Source: a phage. From it: DNA of 39,736 nucleotides. The stretch lies in sequence record PZ379179.1; one strand, written 5' to 3'. Numbering within the stretch: the first letter of the stretch is position 1; each line of letters begins with the position of its first letter. Positions 2,483 through 39,736 of this stretch are shown piece after piece. The position numbers and the translations under genes were made by a program. The notes beneath the pieces were generated by a model. It had not been told where the DNA came from. It ran no database searches and was given only the letters and a program-made list of their open reading frames with translations.

Positions 2483-2808
2483 TGAACAAGTCATACGGGA
2501 TTAATCTGGTACACTCTATGGACGCAGACATGCAAATGTTAAGCCTACTGGCTACCGGGTATCGTCACGGAACGTCAAGTCACTCCGCACGTCAACAGCA
2601 GGAGCGGGACCGGGTACTGCAAGCAAGACTCCGGGCTGAGGGCCATAAGTCCGAACTAATGTGTCTGGCGTATGGTGGACGACCAATCACTGACGATGGT
2701 AAACTTTTAGTCTCAGGCTGGAAGGCGATAGACCAACGGTCAACCATCAAGCACACGACTCATGGTGACTTCAGTCATCTCCACGCTAACCCGCTGATAT
2801 GCAAGTAA
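2482..2808 (+). CDS. Hypothetical early protein (108 aa)
   Basis: ATG overlaps the upstream stop (TAATG), suggesting translational coupling. Last ORF before the RNA polymerase; no recognisable domain and no kinase motifs. Confidence 0.5.
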   Translation: MNKSYGINLVHSMDADMQMLSLLATGYRHGTSSHSARQQQERDRVLQARLRAEGHKSELMCLAYGGRPITDDGKLLVSGWKAIDQRSTIKHTTHGDFSHLHANPLICK

Positions 2809-2813
2809 TTCTG

Positions 2814-2836
2814 ACTTAACTATCACTATAGGACTC
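2814..2836 (+). promoter_or_regulatory. Phage RNAP promoter upstream of the RNAP gene
   Basis: TTAACTATCACTATAGGA matches the genome-wide promoter consensus; predicted +1 G at 2831. Followed by direct repeats AAGTGAAAGAC (x2) before the RNAP start. Confidence 0.6.
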
Positions 2837-2905
2837 AAGGTCTAAGACTCCAAGTGAAAGACCAAAGAGACTTTAAGTGAAAGACTAATAACAAGGACTT
2901 TAAGT

Positions 2906-5587
2906 ATGAGCGTCATCTCTATTGACAAGCACGACTTCTCTGATGTATCGAACGCCATTGAGCCGTTTAACCTACTGGCTGACCACTACGGGCAAGACCT
3001 TGCAGTCAAACAGCTTCAGCTTGAGCACGAGGCATACACTGAAGGCGAGCGACGTTTCATCAAGAACCTTGAGAGACAGACTGAGCGAGGGGAACTGGCA
3101 GACAATCAGGTCGCCAAGCCTTTGATGCAGACTCTGGTCCCTAAGATTGCGCAAGCCGTCAAGGAGTGGCATGAAGGTCCAGACGGGAAGCTGTCAACCT
3201 CTCGTCCGAGCGTAGCGTTCACCATGTTGAGCACTGAAGAGAAGGCCGTAAAGGTCCGCTCTTTGCGCATCTCCTGCGAGTCTGCTGCGGTTATCATACT
3301 GAAGGTCATACTCTCCAAGCTGGTCAAGCCTGAAGGGATACCGATTACACCGATGGCCTCAGCGATAGGTCGCACACTTGAGGACGAAATCCGCTTCGGT
3401 CGCATCCGTGACAAGGAGAAAGAGCACTTCAAGAAGGCGATAGCTGATAACCTGAATAAGCGGGCCGGGGCGTCCTACAAGAAAGCCTACATGCAAGCGG
3501 TCGAGGCATCCATGCTGGAGCAAGGCCAACTGGAAGATGCGTGGGGGACTTGGAGTCCGACCGAGGCTGTCCACGTTGGAATCAAGATGCTGGAGATTGT
3601 CATCCAGTCCACACAACTGGTCGAGCTTAAGCGTTACGGTGCTGGCAATGCAGCGGCTGACGTTGAGATGGTCCACCTGTCAGACTTCTGGGTCAAGAAG
3701 ATGGCACAACGAGGATTCAGCCTTGCGGGTATAGCTCCAGTCTACCAGCCTTGCGTCGTTCCACCTAAGCCGTGGACTGGTGTCGTAGGCGGTGGGTACT
3801 GGGCCAAAGGACGCAGACCATTACCACTGATTCGCTTAGGGTCTAAGTCTGCGGTAGCACGCTACGAAGACGTGTATATGCCTGAAGTCTATGACGCTGT
3901 GAACATCATTCAGAATACACCTTGGAAAGTGAACAAGAAGGTTCTGGAAGTGGTGAACATGGTCGAGAAGCTGAACAACACGCCTATTGATGACATCCCT
4001 CAGATGGAACCGCTGAAGCCTGAGGACTATGCGGGTGAGACTGAAGAAGAACTCAAGGCATGGAAGAAGGCTGCTGCTGGTATCTATCGCCGCGAGAAGG
4101 CCAGACAGTCACGAAGATTGTCACTGAGCTTTATCGTCAACCAAGCGAACAAGTTCTCTCAGTTCAAGGCCATCTGGTTCCCGTATAACATGGACTGGCG
4201 CGGTCGCGTCTACGCTGTGCCGATGTTCAACCCTCAGGGTAACGACATGCAAAAGGGTCTTCTGACTCTGGCAGTCGGTAAGCCTATTGGTGCTGATGGT
4301 TTCAAATGGCTGAAGGTCCACGGTGCAAACTGCGCGGGTGTCGATAAAGTCACCTTCGAGGAGCGTATCAAGTGGGTGGAAGATAACCACGAAAACATCA
4401 TGGCTGCTGCCAAGGCACCGATGGATAGCATTGAGTGGTGGGGCAAGTTAGACTCTCCGTTCTGCTTCCTAGCGTTCTGCTTCGAGTATGCTGGCGTAAT
4501 GCACCACGGCTTGTCTTACTCCTGCTCGCTGCCGATAGCGTTCGATGGGTCCTGCTCTGGGATTCAGCACTTCAGCGCTATGCTTCGCGACCACATCGGT
4601 GGACATGCAGTAAACCTGACGCCATCCGGTAAGGTACAAGACATCTACCGAATTGTGTCTGACCGCATTGAGGAGCAGCTTAAAGTCCTGCTGATTAACG
4701 GTACTGACAACGAGATGGTCACTCACGAGGATAAGAAAACTGGTGAGATTACCGAACGTATCAAGCTGGGGACACGAGAGCTGGCCCGTCAGTGGCTGAC
4801 ATACGGTATGTCACGCAAGGTCACTAAGCGTTCAGTCATGACTCTGGCATACGGGTCGAAAGAGTACGGCTTCGCAGACCAAGTTTACGAGGACATCGTG
4901 ATGCCAGCGATTGACTCAGGGTATGGCGCTATGTTCACCGAGCCAAGCCAAGCGTCTCGATTCATGGCTAAGATGATTTGGGAAGCTGTGAGTGTGACCG
5001 TAGTTGCTGCGGTTGACGCGATGAAGTGGCTTCAAGGTGCTGCCAAGCTGCTGGCTGCTGAAGTGAAGGACAAGAAGACTGGCGAAATCCTGAAGCCATG
5101 CCTTCCGGTACACTGGGTAACACCTGATGGTTTCCCTGTCTGGCAGGAATACCGCAAGAAGGATACCACTCGTCTGAACCTGATGTTCTTAGGGTCATTC
5201 AACCTTCAGCCTACAGTCAACAAAGGAACGAAGAAAGAGCTTGACAAGCACAAGCAGGAGTCAGGCATTAGCCCTAACTTCGTCCACTCACAAGATGGTA
5301 GCCACCTGCGGAAGACTGTAGTCCACACTCACCGCAAGTATGGCGTGATGTCATTCGCAGTGATTCACGATAGCTTCGGGACCATCCCTGCTGACGCTGA
5401 GTATCTGTTCCGTGGTGTCCGTGAGACGATGGTCGAGACATACCGCGATAATGATGTGCTGCTTGACTTCTACGAGCAGTTCGAATACCAGCTTCATGAA
5501 AGTCAGCGCGACAAGTTGCCTGAGCTTCCGAAGAAAGGTAAACTGAATATCGAAGACATCTTGTCTTCAGACTTTGCATTCGCTTAA
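2906..5587 (+). CDS. Single-subunit DNA-directed RNA polymerase (T7 gene 1 homolog)
   Basis: 893 aa; collinear with recalled T7 RNAP, including AFDGSCSGIQHFSAMLRD, VIHDSFGTIPAD and the C-terminal DFAFA. AAGGA RBS 8 nt upstream. Confidence 0.97.
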   Translation: MSVISIDKHDFSDVSNAIEPFNLLADHYGQDLAVKQLQLEHEAYTEGERRFIKNLERQTERGELADNQVAKPLMQTLVPKIAQAVKEWHEGPDGKLSTSRPSVAFTMLSTEEKAVKVRSLRISCESAAVIILKVILSKLVKPEGIPITPMASAIGRTLEDEIRFGRIRDKEKEHFKKAIADNLNKRAGASYKKAYMQAVEASMLEQGQLEDAWGTWSPTEAVHVGIKMLEIVIQSTQLVELKRYGAGNAAADVEMVHLSDFWVKKMAQRGFSLAGIAPVYQPCVVPPKPWTGVVGGGYWAKGRRPLPLIRLGSKSAVARYEDVYMPEVYDAVNIIQNTPWKVNKKVLEVVNMVEKLNNTPIDDIPQMEPLKPEDYAGETEEELKAWKKAAAGIYRREKARQSRRLSLSFIVNQANKFSQFKAIWFPYNMDWRGRVYAVPMFNPQGNDMQKGLLTLAVGKPIGADGFKWLKVHGANCAGVDKVTFEERIKWVEDNHENIMAAAKAPMDSIEWWGKLDSPFCFLAFCFEYAGVMHHGLSYSCSLPIAFDGSCSGIQHFSAMLRDHIGGHAVNLTPSGKVQDIYRIVSDRIEEQLKVLLINGTDNEMVTHEDKKTGEITERIKLGTRELARQWLTYGMSRKVTKRSVMTLAYGSKEYGFADQVYEDIVMPAIDSGYGAMFTEPSQASRFMAKMIWEAVSVTVVAAVDAMKWLQGAAKLLAAEVKDKKTGEILKPCLPVHWVTPDGFPVWQEYRKKDTTRLNLMFLGSFNLQPTVNKGTKKELDKHKQESGISPNFVHSQDGSHLRKTVVHTHRKYGVMSFAVIHDSFGTIPADAEYLFRGVRETMVETYRDNDVLLDFYEQFEYQLHESQRDKLPELPKKGKLNIEDILSSDFAFA

Positions 5588-6678: not shown

Positions 6679-7706
6679 TGACAACTATCAAAACTAACCC
6701 TCACCGCGCTGTAGATTACTCTGAGTCTGGAATTAAGAAGGCACTGGAAGCAGCCGGGTCTCTGGAAGCTGAAGTGAAGTACGATGGTGTGCGCCTGAAC
6801 CTCCTGGTCCTGCGTGAAGGTGAGACCTACTGGCTTAGCCGCGAGTCGAAACCTCTACCAGCCTTGGAGTGGATGAACTCTGAGTTAGGTAATGCGTGGA
6901 CCCAAGCTGACTGGCGATGGTTCCTGCGTCAATCCGGCTACGAAGGTGTGGGCATGATGATTGATGGCGAGGTCATGGTCAAAGGTGTAGACTTCAACAC
7001 CTCCTCAGGTCTCATCCGAACGAAGTGGCTCAAGCCTAACAACGAGGAGTTCGCTGAATACTATTCGCCGGCGACTGGTGGAAAGAAGCTCCCGTTCTGG
7101 GGATCCCGGTCACGACTTCAGGTTGTGGTCTACGGTGTCATTGACATGACAACCATTGCTGACCCGAAAGCCGAAGGTCCTATCCATAGCGTAACCCGCC
7201 TGAAGGCCGAAGCTATCGTCCCTCTTCTCCAGAAATACTTCCCGGAAATCGACTGGGTTCTGTCTGAGAGTCATACAGTGTTCAACCTTGAGTCTCTTCG
7301 TGATTTGTACGAGGAGAAGCGAGCAGATGGACATGAAGGTCTGGTAGTCAAGGACCCACTGGGCAAATACAAGCGTGGTAAGAAGTCTGGTATGTGGAAG
7401 ATGAAGCCGAGTGAAGAGGCAGATGGTCACGTTGTTCGCCCGGTGTGGGGAACAGAAGGCCTAGCCAACGAAGGCATGGTCATCGGCTTTGACGTTATGC
7501 TCGAGAACGGGATGGAGGTCTCCGCAACTAACATTAGTCGCGCCCTTATGTCCGAGTTCACGGAGAACGTTAAGTCAGACCCTGACTACTACAAAGGGTG
7601 GGCTTGCCAGATTACCTACATGGAGGAGACACCAGATGGCTCATTGCGACACCCCTCGTTCTACCAGTGGCGTGGAACTGAGGATAATCCTACAGTCAAG
7701 ATTTAA
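6678..7706 (+). CDS. ATP-dependent DNA ligase (T7 gene 1.3 homolog)
   Basis: Adenylation motif KYDGVR; MTTIKTNP...SYWLSRESK...HEGLVVKDP...KRGKKSGMWKMKP...WACQITYMEETPDGSLRHPSF collinear with T7 ligase. Track ORF begins at 6663; the ATG at 6678 overlaps the gene 1.2 stop. Confidence 0.93.
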   Translation: MTTIKTNPHRAVDYSESGIKKALEAAGSLEAEVKYDGVRLNLLVLREGETYWLSRESKPLPALEWMNSELGNAWTQADWRWFLRQSGYEGVGMMIDGEVMVKGVDFNTSSGLIRTKWLKPNNEEFAEYYSPATGGKKLPFWGSRSRLQVVVYGVIDMTTIADPKAEGPIHSVTRLKAEAIVPLLQKYFPEIDWVLSESHTVFNLESLRDLYEEKRADGHEGLVVKDPLGKYKRGKKSGMWKMKPSEEADGHVVRPVWGTEGLANEGMVIGFDVMLENGMEVSATNISRALMSEFTENVKSDPDYYKGWACQITYMEETPDGSLRHPSFYQWRGTEDNPTVKI

Positions 7707-7707
7707 A

Positions 7708-8118
7708 GTGGACGAAAGGTCGGCCTCCGGGCTGGCACTCCACTCTGGACGAAAGGTAGGAAGTAAGAAGAAGTCCGGCTATTGGACGATAAACGTCAGG
7801 ACACCGTGGGGCCGAAAGCATCTACAGGTTCATAGGGTAATATGGGAGATGACACACGGTCCCATACCAGACGGCATGGAGATTGACCACATTGACCGGA
7901 ACCCTTCTAATAACAGGCTGTCCAACCTGCGACTGGTGACTCACTCCGAGAACAACCAGAACAAAGGACAGATGTCCACCAACACTACCGGAGAACGTCA
8001 CATCTCAAAGGTGAAAGGTCGAGAGCTTTACTGTATCAAGAAGGTGGTCAACGGAGAGCGCTTGGTCCTATATGCCAAGACCATAGCCGAGGCAGTAGCC
8101 TTAAGAGATTCATTATAA
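7708..8118 (+). CDS. HNH homing-type endonuclease (copy A)
   Basis: HNH core [46 protein letters not shown]. The track ORF starts inside the ligase gene; alignment with the paralog at 36668 puts the N-terminus at GTG 7708, directly after the ligase stop. No in-frame ATG is available. Confidence 0.7.
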   Translation: MDERSASGLALHSGRKVGSKKKSGYWTINVRTPWGRKHLQVHRVIWEMTHGPIPDGMEIDHIDRNPSNNRLSNLRLVTHSENNQNKGQMSTNTTGERHISKVKGRELYCIKKVVNGERLVLYAKTIAEAVALRDSL

Positions 8119-8901: not shown

Positions 8902-9056
8902 CTGAGGTTGAGAAGAAATACATCGTGGAGCTTGAGGGTCGCGTTCAGTCCTTCGAGGTTCCGTTGTACGCAAAGTCTCTTGAAGAGGCTACCCTGAAGT
9001 CCCAAGAGTATGAGGACGCTGGGTTTGTGGTCGGACGGATTCGCCCTGAGACCTAA
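8898..9056 (+). CDS. Gp2-like inhibitor of host RNA polymerase (52 aa)
   Basis: [14 protein letters not shown]...[10 protein letters not shown] matches recalled T7 Gp2 (SFEVPIYAETLDEA...AGFEVTRVRP). Below the track size cut-off. Confidence 0.8.
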
Positions 9057-9074
9057 ACTATCACTGTAGGACAG
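9052..9074 (+). promoter_or_regulatory. Phage RNAP promoter, variant (CACTGTAGG)
   Basis: CTAAACTATCACTGTAGGACAGA, with G at -2 relative to the consensus; upstream of the SSB gene. Confidence 0.55.
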
Positions 9075-9114
9075 ACGTCCAGTTAGTAACTTTTAAATTA
9101 GGAGATTTACACCG

Positions 9115-9809
9115 ATGGCTAAAGAGCAACTGAAGACTTTCACCACTCCGGTAGCTGGTATCGTTGAGCCTTACGCATGGCTGAACAAAGCAGACACCAA
9201 GTTTAACGAGCGTGGTGAGCATAAGGTTAACCTGACGTTCGACCTGAGCGACCCGAAGGTCCGTAAGATGATTGATGTCTTACAGAAGATTCACGACGAT
9301 GCGTATGCAAAAGCACTCGCAGACCACGAGAAGAACCCCCTCAGGTTCAGCGTGGCAAGAAGCCTATTGAACCACGAGAAGGCGACATGCCGTGGATTGA
9401 GAATGGTGACGGTACTGTTACCCTTAAGTTTAAATGCTTTGCGTCTTACCTGAAAGACGGCAAGTCCGAGCCTATCGTATTACGGTTCTACGACACCGAT
9501 GCTAAACTCATCCGTGACGTCCCGAATATCTGCGCTGGGTCTAAGCTGAAGGTCAAGTTTAAAGTCCTGCCGTTCAAGTGGAACGCTGCGACTGGTGCAA
9601 GCGTTAAGCTCCAGCTTGAGTCCTGCCTTCTGGTAGAACTGAAGGAGTGGAAAGGCGATGGTGGCGATGGTGGCTGGGGTGATGATGAAGACCTTGGTAC
9701 TGGCTACAAAGCGTCAACCGTTGGTGACTTCGGTGGTGATGACTTTGGGTCTGACGATGGTTCCGAAGGTGGTGACGACTCCAGCTCTGATGGCGATTAC
9801 GACTTCTAA
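9115..9809 (+). CDS. ssDNA-binding protein (T7 gp2.5 homolog), frame interrupted at a C5 run
   Basis: Track ORFs 9115..9453 and 9387..9809 together align with T7 gp2.5 (N-terminal part in one frame; PPQVQRGKKP...MPWIENGDGTVTLKFKC...GSKLKVKFKVLPFKWNAATGASVKLQLE and the acidic C-terminus ending DGDYDF in the other). The frames meet at CCCCC 9336-9340. Confidence 0.85.
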
Positions 9810-15638: not shown

Positions 15639-15920
15639 ATGCCTACCGGATGTATCGTCTGCGTGTCCCACAAGAGGAACCAAGATGGGTACTTCCGGTA
15701 CTCCATGGGAAGCTACAGGAAGGGCAACAAGTTCGCCTTCATGTTCCACCGATGGGTGTGGGAGCAGAAGCGCGGACCTATACCAAATGGCTACGAAATA
15801 GACCATTTGTGCTTGAACCGTGGGTGCTGCAACATAGAGCATCTACAGTGTATTCCAAAACGCGAACACGTCATTAAGACGAACCGTGAGCGCAAACTTG
15901 TTAAGAAGGAGTGTCACTAA
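15639..15920 (+). CDS. HNH endonuclease (T7 gene 5.3 position)
   Basis: 93 aa from the ATG at 15639 (the track ORF starts inside the polymerase gene); HNH with Cys ligands, HRWVWEQKRGPIPNGYEIDHLCLNRGCCNIEHLQ. Confidence 0.65.
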   Translation: MPTGCIVCVSHKRNQDGYFRYSMGSYRKGNKFAFMFHRWVWEQKRGPIPNGYEIDHLCLNRGCCNIEHLQCIPKREHVIKTNRERKLVKKECH

Positions 15921-21347: not shown

Positions 21348-22397
21348 ATGGCAAACGTTCCGGGTCAGAAAGTTGGTACAGACCAAGGTAAAGGCAAATC
21401 TGGTTCCGACGCTCTGGCGTTGTTCCTGAAGGTCTTTGCTGGCGAAGTCCTGACAGCATTCACTCGCCGCTCTGTAACTGCTGACAAGCATATTGTCCGT
21501 ACCATTCAGAACGGTAAGTCTGCTCAGTTCCCGGTCATGGGTCGCACCTCTGGTGTGTATCTGGCTCCGGGTGAGCGACTGTCCGATAAGCGTAAAGGTA
21601 TCAAACATACCGAGAAAGTGATTACCATTGATGGTCTGCTGACTGCCGATGTGATGATTTTCGACATTGAAGACGCGATGAACCACTATGACGTGGCTGG
21701 CGAGTACTCCAACCAGTTGGGCGAAGCTCTGGCTATCGCTGCCGATGGTGCGGTACTGGCTGAGATGGCTATTCTGTGTAACCTACCGGCTGCATCTGAT
21801 GAAAACATCGCTGGTCTTGGCAAAGCGTCTGTGCTGAAAGTTGGTACTAAAGCAGACCTGAACACTCCGGCTAAGCTGGGTGAAGCAATCATCGGTCAAC
21901 TGACCATTGCTCGTGCGAAGCTGACATCCAACTACGTTCCTGCTGGCGACCGTTACTTCTACACCACACCGGACAACTACTCTGCAATCCTCGCGGCTCT
22001 GATGCCGAACGCTGCTAACTATGCTGCGCTGATTGACCCAGAGACTGGTAACATCCGTAACGTAATGGGCTTCGTGGTTGTTGAAGTTCCACACTTGACT
22101 CAGGGTGGTGCTGGGGAAACTCGTGGTGCCGATGGTATCACTATTGCGACTGGTCAGAAGCACGCCTTCCCAGCTACTGCTACTGGTGATGTTAAAGTTG
22201 CTCTGGACAACGTTGTGGGCCTGTTCTCTCACCGTTCTGCTGTAGGTACTGTTAAGCTGCGTGACTTGGCGCTGGAACGTGACCGCGACGTCGATGCTCA
22301 GGGCGACCTGATTGTTGGTAAGTACGCTATGGGCCACGGTGGTCTGCGTCCAGAAGCAGCAGGCGCACTGGTTTTCACAGCGGCGTCAGCGGGTTAA
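21348..22397 (+). CDS. Major capsid protein 10A
   Basis: 349 aa; LALFLKVF.GEVLTAF...SGKSAQFPV...HTEKVITIDGLLTADV...EDAMNHYDV...AILAALMPNAANYAALIDPE...RNVMGF.VVEVPHLT...RSAVGTVKLRDLALER...AMGHGGLRPEAAGA matches T7 gp10A. Confidence 0.97.
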   Translation: MANVPGQKVGTDQGKGKSGSDALALFLKVFAGEVLTAFTRRSVTADKHIVRTIQNGKSAQFPVMGRTSGVYLAPGERLSDKRKGIKHTEKVITIDGLLTADVMIFDIEDAMNHYDVAGEYSNQLGEALAIAADGAVLAEMAILCNLPAASDENIAGLGKASVLKVGTKADLNTPAKLGEAIIGQLTIARAKLTSNYVPAGDRYFYTTPDNYSAILAALMPNAANYAALIDPETGNIRNVMGFVVVEVPHLTQGGAGETRGADGITIATGQKHAFPATATGDVKVALDNVVGLFSHRSAVGTVKLRDLALERDRDVDAQGDLIVGKYAMGHGGLRPEAAGALVFTAASAG

Positions 22398-36224: not shown

Positions 36225-36671
36225 ATGCTCGAATTTTTAAAGAGAGCGGCTCCGTGGTTACTTTCAGCAGTGATATTTGCTGGTGGCTACCACACCGCTA
36301 ACAATAAGTGGGAGGCTAAGGTCAATGCAGAATACACCTCGAATCTTAAGGCATCGGAGGATACAAGACTTGCTGTCCAAGCTGAAGTCAACAAAGTGTC
36401 CAAACGGTTTCAGGACGAAATGTCCTCGCTGGAAGGCAGCACTGATAGGATTATTGCTGACCTTCAGTCTGACAATAAGCGGTTGCGCATCCGAGTCAAA
36501 CCTACGAGTGGAACCACGCAAAGTGACGGTCGATGCGTCATTGATGGTTACGCCGAACTTGACGAACGAGATGCTAAACGTCTTATCGCCATCGGAGTGA
36601 AAGGAGACAAATGGATTAAGGCGCTTCAGGACACTGTGAGAGCCTTGCAGCAAGATAAGGAGGCCCAATGA
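36225..36671 (+). CDS. i-spanin, Rz-like (T7 gp18.5 homolog)
   Basis: 148 aa; MLEFLKRAAPWLL...LEGSTDRIIADLQSDNKRLRIRVK...LDERDAKRLIA...GDKWIKALQDTVRALQ matches T7 gp18.5; N-terminal TM segment. Confidence 0.9.
   Translation: MLEFLKRAAPWLLSAVIFAGGYHTANNKWEAKVNAEYTSNLKASEDTRLAVQAEVNKVSKRFQDEMSSLEGSTDRIIADLQSDNKRLRIRVKPTSGTTQSDGRCVIDGYAELDERDAKRLIAIGVKGDKWIKALQDTVRALQQDKEAQ
36325..36600 (+). CDS. o-spanin, Rz1-like lipoprotein embedded in the +1 frame of the i-spanin gene
   Basis: Track ORF 36277..36600 in an alternative frame inside gp18.5; contains a lipobox-like LTISGC after a hydrophobic stretch LIGLLLTFS. Start uncertain (first ATG at 36325). Confidence 0.45.
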   Translation: MQNTPRILRHRRIQDLLSKLKSTKCPNGFRTKCPRWKAALIGLLLTFSLTISGCASESNLRVEPRKVTVDASLMVTPNLTNEMLNVLSPSE

Positions 36672-37108
36672 TGCTCAGTGATTCGTATGTCTATGATGAG
36701 TCCAGTAAGTCTGGCCTGAAGTCCCTGCGTTCTGGTAAGGACGTGGGGTGTGTGGGAAACCACGGGTATTATCAGGTAGGAACTCGACGTCATGGACTCC
36801 TACTGGCCCATAGAGTCGTCTGGGAACTAACCCACGGTCCTATACCAGAAGGTATGGAGATTGACCATATTGACCGCTGCCGGACTAACAACAGGCTGGA
36901 CAACCTCCGGCTAGTTACTTCAAGCGAGAACTCCTGCAACACCTCAGGACATTCTGACTCAAAGACTGGAGTTAAGAACATATCGTTCCATCAGAATGGC
37001 TACGCTATCGAGGTCATGCGTAAGGGAGTCCGTATGCGAACAACACGTCCTACTTTAGAGGAGGCTATCTCTGTCCGGGACCTAATGCTGGAGGGACTCT
37101 ATGTCTAA
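36668..37108 (+). CDS. HNH homing-type endonuclease (copy B, paralog of 7708..8118)
   Basis: 146 aa; [13 protein letters not shown]...[41 protein letters not shown], about 60% identical to copy A across the core. Overlaps the gp18.5 stop and the terminase start. Confidence 0.8.
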
Positions 37109-38867
37109 GAAAACACCTGCTGAAAGACAGGCTGAAATGACCCAAAGGATGAGGGACGACTTCGTGTTCTTCATCTTCGTTCTCTGGAAAGCTCTTAGCC
37201 TTCCGGTTCCAACCCGCTGCCAGATAGATATGTGTAAGAAGCTGGCTGCTGGGGATAATCGCCGCTTCATCCTTCAGGCTTTCCGTGGTATTGGTAAGTC
37301 GTTTCTGACCTGTGGTTTCGTGGTCTGGAAGCTATGGAACAACCCAGACTTGAAGTTCATGATTGTGTCGGCCTCAAAGGAACGAGCTGATGCTAACTCC
37401 ATCTTCATCAAGCGAATCATCGACCTCATGCCTCAGCTTCAGGAACTCAAACCTAAGCAGGGACAGCGAGATGCGGTTATCAGCTTCGACGTTGGTCCCG
37501 CCAAGCCAGACCACTCACCTTCGGTTAAGTCCGTTGGTATCACTGGTCAGTTGACTGGTAGTCGTGCTGACATCCTGATTGCTGATGACGTGGAGGTTCC
37601 GAACAACTCAGCGACTCAGGCTGCCCGGGACCGTCTGTCAGAGCTTGTGAAAGAGTTCGACGCTATCCTGAAGCCTGGAGGTACAATCATCTATCTGGGT
37701 ACTCCTCAGAACGAGATGACCCTATACCGTGAGCTGGAAGGTCGTGGGTACACCACTACTATCTGGCCCGCTCGTTATCCACGCGACAGGAAGGACTGGC
37801 AGTCTTACGGCGACCGTCTGGCTCCTATGCTTCAGGCAGAGCTGGAAGAGGACCCTGAGTCCTTCTACTGGCGTCCGACTGATGAAGTACGCTTCGATGA
37901 TACGGACCTGAAGGAACGTGAGCTGTCCTACGGTAAAGCTGGCTTCGCTCTACAGTTCATGCTTAACCCTAACCTGAGTGATGCCGAGAAGTACCCTCTG
38001 AAGCTCCGTGACCTTATCGTAGCAGACTTGGACCCAGCGTCTAGCCCAATGGTCTACCAATGGCTTCCTAACCCTCAGAACAAGCGTGAGGACGTTCCTA
38101 ACGTTGGACTCATGGGTGACTCGTACCACACGTATCAGACTGTAGGCTCTGCCTTCAGCGCGTACACTCAGAAGATTCTGGTCATTGACCCTAGTGGTCG
38201 TGGTAAGGATGAGACTGGCTACGCTGTTCTGTACCAGCTCAACGGCTACATCTTCGTGATGGAAGCTGGTGGTATGCGCGGTGGGTATGAGGACTCTACG
38301 CTGGAAGCACTGGCTAAGATTGGTCGTAAGTGGAAGGTCAACGAATACGTCATTGAGGGTAACTTCGGTGATGGTATGTACCTTGAGCTATTCAAGCCTG
38401 TAGCGGCCCGTATACATCCTGCTGCTGTAACTGAAGTGAAGAGTAAGGGTCAGAAAGAACTCCGCATCTGTGACGTTCTGGAGCCTATCATGGGGTCTCA
38501 CCGACTTATCGTCAACGCTGCTGCTATCGTCCAAGACTACCAGTCGGCCTCTGATAAGGATGGTGTTCGTAACCCTATCTACTCTCTCTTCTACCAGATG
38601 ACACGTATCTCTCGTGAACGTGGAGCCTTGGCACACGATGACAGACTTGATGCTCTGGCTATCGGTGTACAGTTCTTCGTTGAGTCTATGGCTAAGGATG
38701 CCAACAAAGGCGAACGTGAAGTCACTGAGGAGTGGCTGGAGGAACAGATGGAGAACCCACGGAAAGGCTTCGAGTCCATCCACACTGAGTTCTGGGACAA
38801 TGGGGTCCGGGTGACTCACGATACGGACGACGAGCTGGGACTAGGGTCCTACGTTACGTTCCACTAG
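37101..38867 (+). CDS. Terminase large subunit / DNA maturation protein B (T7 gene 19 homolog)
   Basis: 588 aa; Walker A-like [10 protein letters not shown], ATPase and nuclease regions; position and size match T7 gp19. GGAGGGA RBS. Confidence 0.95.
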
Positions 38868-39575: not shown

Positions 39576-39736
39576 CCTCAAGTCTCCCCATAGGCCCTCT
39601 TTAAGTCAAGACCAAAGGCCCTACCCATAGACCTTCGGTCTAAACTTCAGGTCATTGACTCAAGGTTGACCAAAAGTCATGACGATAGGTCTAGGCTATG
39701 GCTTAGGGAAGGACGATAGGTAGGGACTATTGGTCT
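39576..39736. repeat. Right direct terminal repeat (161 bp)
   Basis: Identical to bases 1-161. Confidence 0.9.

Follow-up and report, generated by a model that had tools for sequence, protein, structure and literature searches.

Gene 2.5 of the phage whose sequence was deposited as PZ379179.1 encodes the essential replication SSB and strand-annealing protein of this T7-like coliphage. A tblastn map places it between the gene for the gp2 RNA polymerase inhibitor and that for gp3 endonuclease I; its stop codon overlaps the start of gene 3, and the order 2 / 2.5 / 3 is repeated in 10 independent contigs. The window, by which we mean the whole 39,736 bp analysed, contains the entire genome of a T7-like phage, and its two ends (1-161 and 39576-39736) are exact direct repeats of 161 bp. 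It has 94-96% identity across 25 kb to Escherichia phages of Kayfunavirus, species LM33P1, and K1F is a relative as well; the window is a finished Kayfunavirus genome, that of a T7 relative resembling K1F and LM33_P1. The phage collection does not contain the PZ379179.1 genome itself, and its top match across the gp2.5 region has 98.5% identity. No exact match to the two SSB ORF products, to the repaired protein described below or to the ligase was found in the public protein and contig collections. ARAGORN found no tRNA gene in the whole window; in the relative U8 (MT862763) a tRNA-Thr is annotated at 3374-3452, between gene 3.7 and the primase gene.

The ribosome-binding site of gene 2.5 is intact, and upstream of it lies a promoter-like motif. 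Copies of this motif, AACTATCACT(A/G)TAGGA, occur on the + strand at 2818, 6139, 8182, 9056, 20242, 33284 and 38966, that is, seven with at most three mismatches on that strand, against 0.04 expected by chance. Only the copy that precedes gene 2.5 has G instead of A at the variable position. Presumably the phage RNA polymerase uses all seven as promoters, an assignment made by analogy with those of the T7 type. The features of the locus are the following.

9056-9073, + strand: promoter-like motif (phage RNA polymerase), AACTATCACTGTAGGACA, upstream of gene 2.5.
9100-9104, + strand: Shine-Dalgarno AGGAG, read from the sequence, 10 nt ahead of the ATG at 9115 with which gp2.5 starts.
9115-9339, + strand: codons 1-75 of the gp2.5 SSB in the initiating frame (MAKEQLK...ADHEKNP), from translation; PF21265 positions 2-73.
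9336-9340, + strand: C5 run at the frame junction, also containing a C_CC.C tetramer able to shift -1, from alignments and a site census.
9339-9809, + strand: codons 76-231 of the gp2.5 SSB and the stop codon, in the -1 frame, from translation, tblastn (frame 3), PF21265 positions 83-169 and the 1JE5 alignment.
9340-9453, + strand: out-of-frame tail of the unshifted product, LRFSVARSLLNHEKATCRGLRMVTVLLPLSLNALRLT followed by TAA, from translation.
9344-9373, + strand: hairpin of 7 bp plus 3 bp, -11 kcal/mol, z = -3.07, from folding, 4 nt after the tetramer.

As deposited, gene 2.5 has no single uninterrupted frame, and the frame changes at 9339. The 0-frame codons at 9328-9345 are GAG AAG AAC CCC CTC AGG, within which AACCCCCTC occupies 9334-9342; the deposited form of the junction is AACCCCCTCAGG, with C5 and the extra base absent. 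An earlier, sequence-only reading had assigned the two halves of the protein to two frames and had located a C5 junction at 9334-9342, and both observations are borne out. The product of codons 1-75 has 98.7% identity to residues 1-75 of the MZ234024 SSB. Read without a shift, the ORF has 112 residues, 75 of them sensible and 37 junk, and ends at TAA 9451-9453. The -1 frame, which reads PQVQRGKKPIEPREGDMPW..., is open from 9276, and from 9339 it reads PQVQRGKKPIEPREGDMPWIENG..., the two ORFs overlapping from 9276 to 9450. Codons 76-231 supply the remaining OB fold and the acidic tail, which ends ...DGDYDF before TAA at 9807-9809; this C-terminus, ...GSDDGSEGGDDSSSDGDYDF, is an acidic tail with a terminal aromatic residue (Phe). 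In T7 gp2.5 the acidic C-terminal tail contacts the polymerase and the helicase. A -1 shift would give the peptide ...ALADHEKNPPQVQR across the junction, the unshifted counterpart being ...NPLR.

Against PF21265, the T7 SSB family model of 169 positions, the N-terminal ORF matches positions 2-73 (E = 5e-20) and the C-terminal ORF positions 83-169 (E = 1e-36). Once one base is inserted, the repaired protein spans positions 2-169 of 169 (E = 1e-72). The repaired 231-residue protein also aligns with residues 7-201 of T7 gp2.5 (PDB 1JE5, E = 6e-54), and the alignment runs unbroken through the junction, heknppqvqrgkkpiepregdmpw standing against YEANPPAVARGKKPLKPYEGDMPF. The match to T7 gp2.5 and the restoration of the frame by one extra base, both of which had been claimed from the letters, are thereby confirmed. 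The pattern is a genuine split of one gene, and a chance arrangement of ORFs is excluded. T7 gene 2.5 (PDB 1JE5; Pfam PF21265 SBB_T7) is like that of the window in the repaired protein, the Phe-ended acidic tail and the position of the gene, and is unlike it in that the gene of the window has a 1-nt deletion after codon 75, a break that by our own count corresponds to Pro77/Pro78 of T7. Frame continuity aside, gene 2.5 is in every feature a typical T7 gp2.5 family member.

Alignments set AACCC-CCTCAGG of the window against AACCCACCTCAGG of its relatives. The codons in the relatives are AAC CCA CCT CAG (Asn-Pro-Pro-Gln) and those of the window AAC CC- CCT CAG, which makes the lost base the third (wobble) position of the Pro75 codon, between 9338 and 9339. 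This base is present in all 53 relatives fetched from the phage, IMG/VR, metagenome and assembly collections (A in 40, G in 11, C in 1 and T in 1), and is A in 7/7 complete close relatives. A C6 run is found in one relative only (L007), with 87% identity across the gene; those with 96-98% identity all have CCCACC. From this comparison, the C5 run was most likely created by loss of the lone A from CCCACC, and it would therefore be newly made rather than a shortened C6. Contraction of C6 to C5 was rejected as the most parsimonious history on the same distribution, C6 being confined to the 87% level. An alternative route, possible but in need of two events, is a synonymous A-to-C change private to this genome and then an undercall of the resulting homopolymer. 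The sequence-only reading had taken the junction for a C6 homopolymer read as C5, which is not supported by the CCCACC of the relatives at 96-98%. Of its wider proposal, a homopolymer sequencing error, the sequence error remains the favoured part, and the homopolymer mechanism gives way to loss of a lone A.

The deletion was found in 0/53 of the fetched relatives, all of which have six bases (CCN CCT) at the site, and in none of the seven complete close relatives. With a search pattern that permitted 0 or 1 base at the site, none of 22 contigs in IMG/VR and none of 16 in metagenomes had the deletion, all being of the 23-nt one-base form. An 81-nt query with the site at its centre matches 218 records of the phage collection, none of them at 100% identity; in the fully listed top score classes every row spans 82 nt against the 81 nt of the query, the records with at least three additional mismatches being listed in part. 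When the 112-residue ORF was used as the query in a collection of 5.8 billion protein clusters, the out-of-frame tail had no match and the best hits covered the 75 in-frame residues only. GTDB genome contigs were scanned for the site as well, and none matched. In 10 further contigs with an identical endonuclease I, a single SSB gene of 230-232 codons lies directly upstream, and the SSB ORF is unbroken, with 230-233 codons, in every relative examined. The lesion is private to the PZ379179.1 genome.

The remainder of gene 2.5 is undergoing no decay. In the OB-fold core downstream of the junction the differences from relatives are mainly synonymous; compared with K1F, codons 76-180 include 6 codons that differ synonymously and 2 non-synonymously, and the variable acidic tail holds most of the amino-acid changes in gp2.5. 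Either the lesion is very recent or the DNA lacks it altogether. When the 54 proteins of MZ234024 were searched by tblastn, gp2.5 alone was split across frames, the extra hits of one other protein being HNH paralogues elsewhere in the genome. Three such HNH-endonuclease-like paralogues lie at 15639-15917, 7822-7953 and 36770-36946. The two weaker copies sit in stretches that cannot be aligned with MZ234024 (about 7520-8116 and 36663-37158) and may be homing-endonuclease insertions beside the ligase and terminase genes. Among the isolated 1-2 nt indels relative to the seven complete relatives, only that at 9339 is private against all seven, and the remaining ones are intergenic and variable among the relatives themselves. 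No genome-wide homopolymer-error signature was found in this comparison with the seven. A generally error-prone assembly was considered and rejected, there being no other frame breaks and no private homopolymer indels. Since the genome is clean elsewhere, we have dropped poor assembly as an argument for an artefact, and a real lesion is not dismissed outright.

The flanks of the junction, about 40 nt per side, match those of intact relatives except for one synonymous difference per side at most, and no recoding signal has evolved along with the frameshift. The junction lacks an X_XXY_YYZ heptamer, the 0-frame C CCC CTC breaking the YYZ rule; the sole shift-capable motif is the C_CC.C tetramer (9336-9339). 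When no stimulator is present, Z_ZZ.N tetramers shift in E. coli at 0.147%, which is about background, constructs lacking a motif giving 0.112% (PMC4066793). C_CC.C is one of only six such tetramers that are shift-prone in E. coli with a stimulator; combined with the strong IS3 pseudoknot, the six gave 0.26-5.6%, C_CC.C being near the bottom (PMC4066793). The rare AGG codon two codons past the site was considered as the cause of a useful shift and rejected, on the reasoning that tRNA-Leu(GAG) on CUC re-pairs poorly with the -1 codon CCU.

Intact relatives carry the hairpin of 9344-9373 with the same sequence, and many other relatives have a synonymous ATT-to-ATC substitution that disrupts an A-U pair and is uncompensated. 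The spacer of 4 nt is short compared with the 5-9 nt downstream that is the criterion for a stimulator, and the folding of the 100 nt downstream of the junction is not unusual (z = -1.09). Because its sequence is common to intact relatives and synonymous changes break the pairing uncompensated, the hairpin is judged incidental, a by-product of the coding sequence; on the same two grounds it was ruled out as an evolved stimulator. Nor does the site have the form of a contingency locus, in which a homopolymer varies in phase: the tract is C5, the relatives have CCCACC or CCCGCC and in one case C6, and tract length at the site does not vary among relatives. The cut-off for contingency tracts is at least 6 nt, and the repeat density of Kayfunavirus is very low (bioRxiv 10.1101/2025.10.21.683753). 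Of the tests applied to programmed frameshifts, conservation in homologues and a maintained stimulator (a structure downstream or a Shine-Dalgarno-like element upstream) give a negative answer at this junction; as to the slippery site, there is no heptamer, and the tetramer that is present is weakly shift-prone, and that only with a strong stimulator.

A comparison is offered by T7 gene 10A/10B, where, as at the gp2.5 junction, the ORFs overlap and the shift between them is of -1, again in a phage of the T7 type. Gene 10 of the window has the canonical G_GTT_TTC at 22370-22376, the 10A stop at 22395-22397 and a -1 extension ORF reaching 22660, and the overlapping -1 ORF of gene 10 is also present in the relatives examined. 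The records of the relatives list this ORF on its own, under 'hypothetical protein', instead of as the 10B extension. Gene 10 has a tandem-slippage heptamer, and its protein is functional without the shift, by which a minority of the molecules gain an optional extension, whereas the gp2.5 junction has a bare tetramer, is found in one genome only and needs the shift for any functional product. The thymidine kinase of herpes simplex virus, in which a 'savior indel' has been described, resembles the gp2.5 case in that a 1-nt indel falls in a run of C or G and the viral gene affected is a needed one (PMC5009743). The herpesvirus case concerns a run of seven G's, is recurrent under drug selection and has had its frameshifting measured (PMC5009743), whereas that of the window is a C5, a single event, known from sequence alone.

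The herpesvirus precedent of compensated indels in a G run (PMC5009743) bears on an explanation in which the deletion is real and a trickle of full-length gp2.5 is made by spontaneous -1 slippage. In this route a tRNA-Pro in the P or A site would re-pair from CCC 9337-9339 to CCC 9336-9338, the next codon being CCU 9339-9341, and the slip would restore the exact ancestral ...NPPQVQ... protein. The membership of C_CC.C among the six tetramers that are shift-prone with a stimulator (PMC4066793), the -11 kcal/mol hairpin 4 nt downstream with its z of -3.07 and a genome that is otherwise error-free are all in its favour. The indel might possibly even have been selected, as a means of lowering SSB under a defence system that senses it, and Retron-Eco8, Hachiman and ShosTA do sense SSBs. 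If true, the dosage of SSB would be down by two to three orders of magnitude and the phage might avoid abortive infection triggered by these systems. However, the yield would be about 0.1% without a strong stimulator, the 0.26-5.6% of the six tetramers having been obtained with a pseudoknot (PMC4066793), and gp2.5 is highly abundant and required in stoichiometric amounts. The hairpin is the same in intact relatives, shows no covariation in others and has a short spacer, the lesion occurs in no second genome, and the SSB changes in T7 escapers of the SSB-sensing Retron-Eco8 are missense only (bioRxiv 10.1101/2022.08.27.505566). We consider this explanation unlikely, and its strict form, in which C5 is true in a viable phage that obtains gp2.5 only by rare C_CC.C re-pairing, perhaps aided by the hairpin, very unlikely.

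A real deletion might equally have gone uncompensated, the deposited sequence being that of a defective variant with a null allele that arose late or was complemented by co-infecting wild type. Single-base deletions are ordinary replication errors, and a private, apparently very recent lesion with unchanged flanks and an undecayed downstream frame is what such a variant would present; yet in a stock that forms plaques no lethal allele should rise to consensus frequency, and complementation at high multiplicity seldom makes the defective genome the majority, which leaves this explanation improbable. An evolved -1 frameshift or transcriptional slippage, serving SSB dosage or the production of two proteins, would parallel T7 gene 10A/10B or dnaX. 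The overlap of the ORFs at 9276-9450 does contain a shift-capable tetramer, and with the G_GTT_TTC site of gene 10 in the same genome the lineage does use -1 frameshifting. However, not one of more than 90 relatives has the two-ORF arrangement, an X_XXY_YYZ heptamer is lacking, the flanks are as in intact relatives, the hairpin is unconserved, and translation with no shift would yield a fragment of the OB fold, 75 residues long, with 37 junk residues attached. For transcriptional slippage in particular, C5 is far too short a run for RNA polymerase. A programmed event is barely credible on this evidence, and the ranking of sequence error above programmed slippage in the sequence-only reading agrees with the private lesion, the lack of a co-evolved signal and the weak tetramer. 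The same very low credence is given to a truly split gene, in which residues 1-75 with their junk tail would reassemble with a 140-residue product starting at ATG 9387. That start is preceded by GAGAAGG, which is Shine-Dalgarno-like, and each half still matches its own part of PF21265. Against this, the break falls inside a single OB-fold domain (residues 15-176 form one PF21265 match), residues 76-91 are in neither piece, no relative examined has such a split, and we know of no precedent in the SSB family of the T7 gp2.5 type.

Related records offer precedents for artefacts in essential genes. In LT594300 (LM33_P1), the gene for the essential RNA polymerase has a stop codon, and none is present in the re-sequenced OZ035813. 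The lesion in LT594300 consists of 12 substitutions within 19 nt at 4891-4909, which create a stop at codon 656 and left the annotated gene split in two; these substitutions are absent from OZ035813. A simple inversion was considered as their origin and rejected, the segment not being a reverse complement. In OP272490 the SSB gene is in three pieces and that of endonuclease I in two. The fragmented stretch of this 56-kb record (OP272490.1, Enterobacter phage 01_vB_Eclo_IJM) is 2501-3627, the assembly appears to be full of frameshifts, and the SSB break is at another position and in another frame than that of the window. The precedent records have many lesions or were corrected by re-sequencing, whereas in the window the lesion is a solitary one and a second record for comparison is lacking.

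Taken together, the one-base deletion is probably an error in the deposited sequence, a reading to which we assign a probability of about 80% on the comparisons described above. It is favoured because the lesion is unique, shows no adaptation around it, affects an essential gene and coincides with a weak shift site, and because there are precedents for such artefacts. The single base would have been lost in sequencing, consensus calling or assembly, and the phage itself would express an ordinary, unbroken gp2.5 of 231 residues by means of its own promoter and ribosome-binding site; we infer that the deletion is absent from the physical DNA. As a biological feature, the junction is most likely not real. 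With the frameshift at codon 75 fixed, a viable plaque-forming stock would have to make do with about one thousandth of the usual SSB level. Where most of a genome is coding, one random error usually falls within a gene. Some observations count against an error: the genome is clean and gives no separate hint of an error-prone platform, the loss of a lone A between C's, unlike a homopolymer miscount, is an error less typical of flow-based chemistries, and the exact 161-bp terminal repeat suggests careful finishing.

If the deletion is an artefact, the consequence is one of curation only, with one gp2.5 gene of 231 codons to be annotated in place of two fragments or a pseudogene. Left uncorrected, the record would cause automated annotation and proteome comparisons to miss an essential replication protein. 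If C5 were instead confirmed in a viable phage, T7-like replication would be proceeding on a tiny fraction of the normal SSB and a bare C_CC.C tetramer would be giving biologically sufficient frameshifting, which would come as a surprise to specialists in T7 replication and in recoding.
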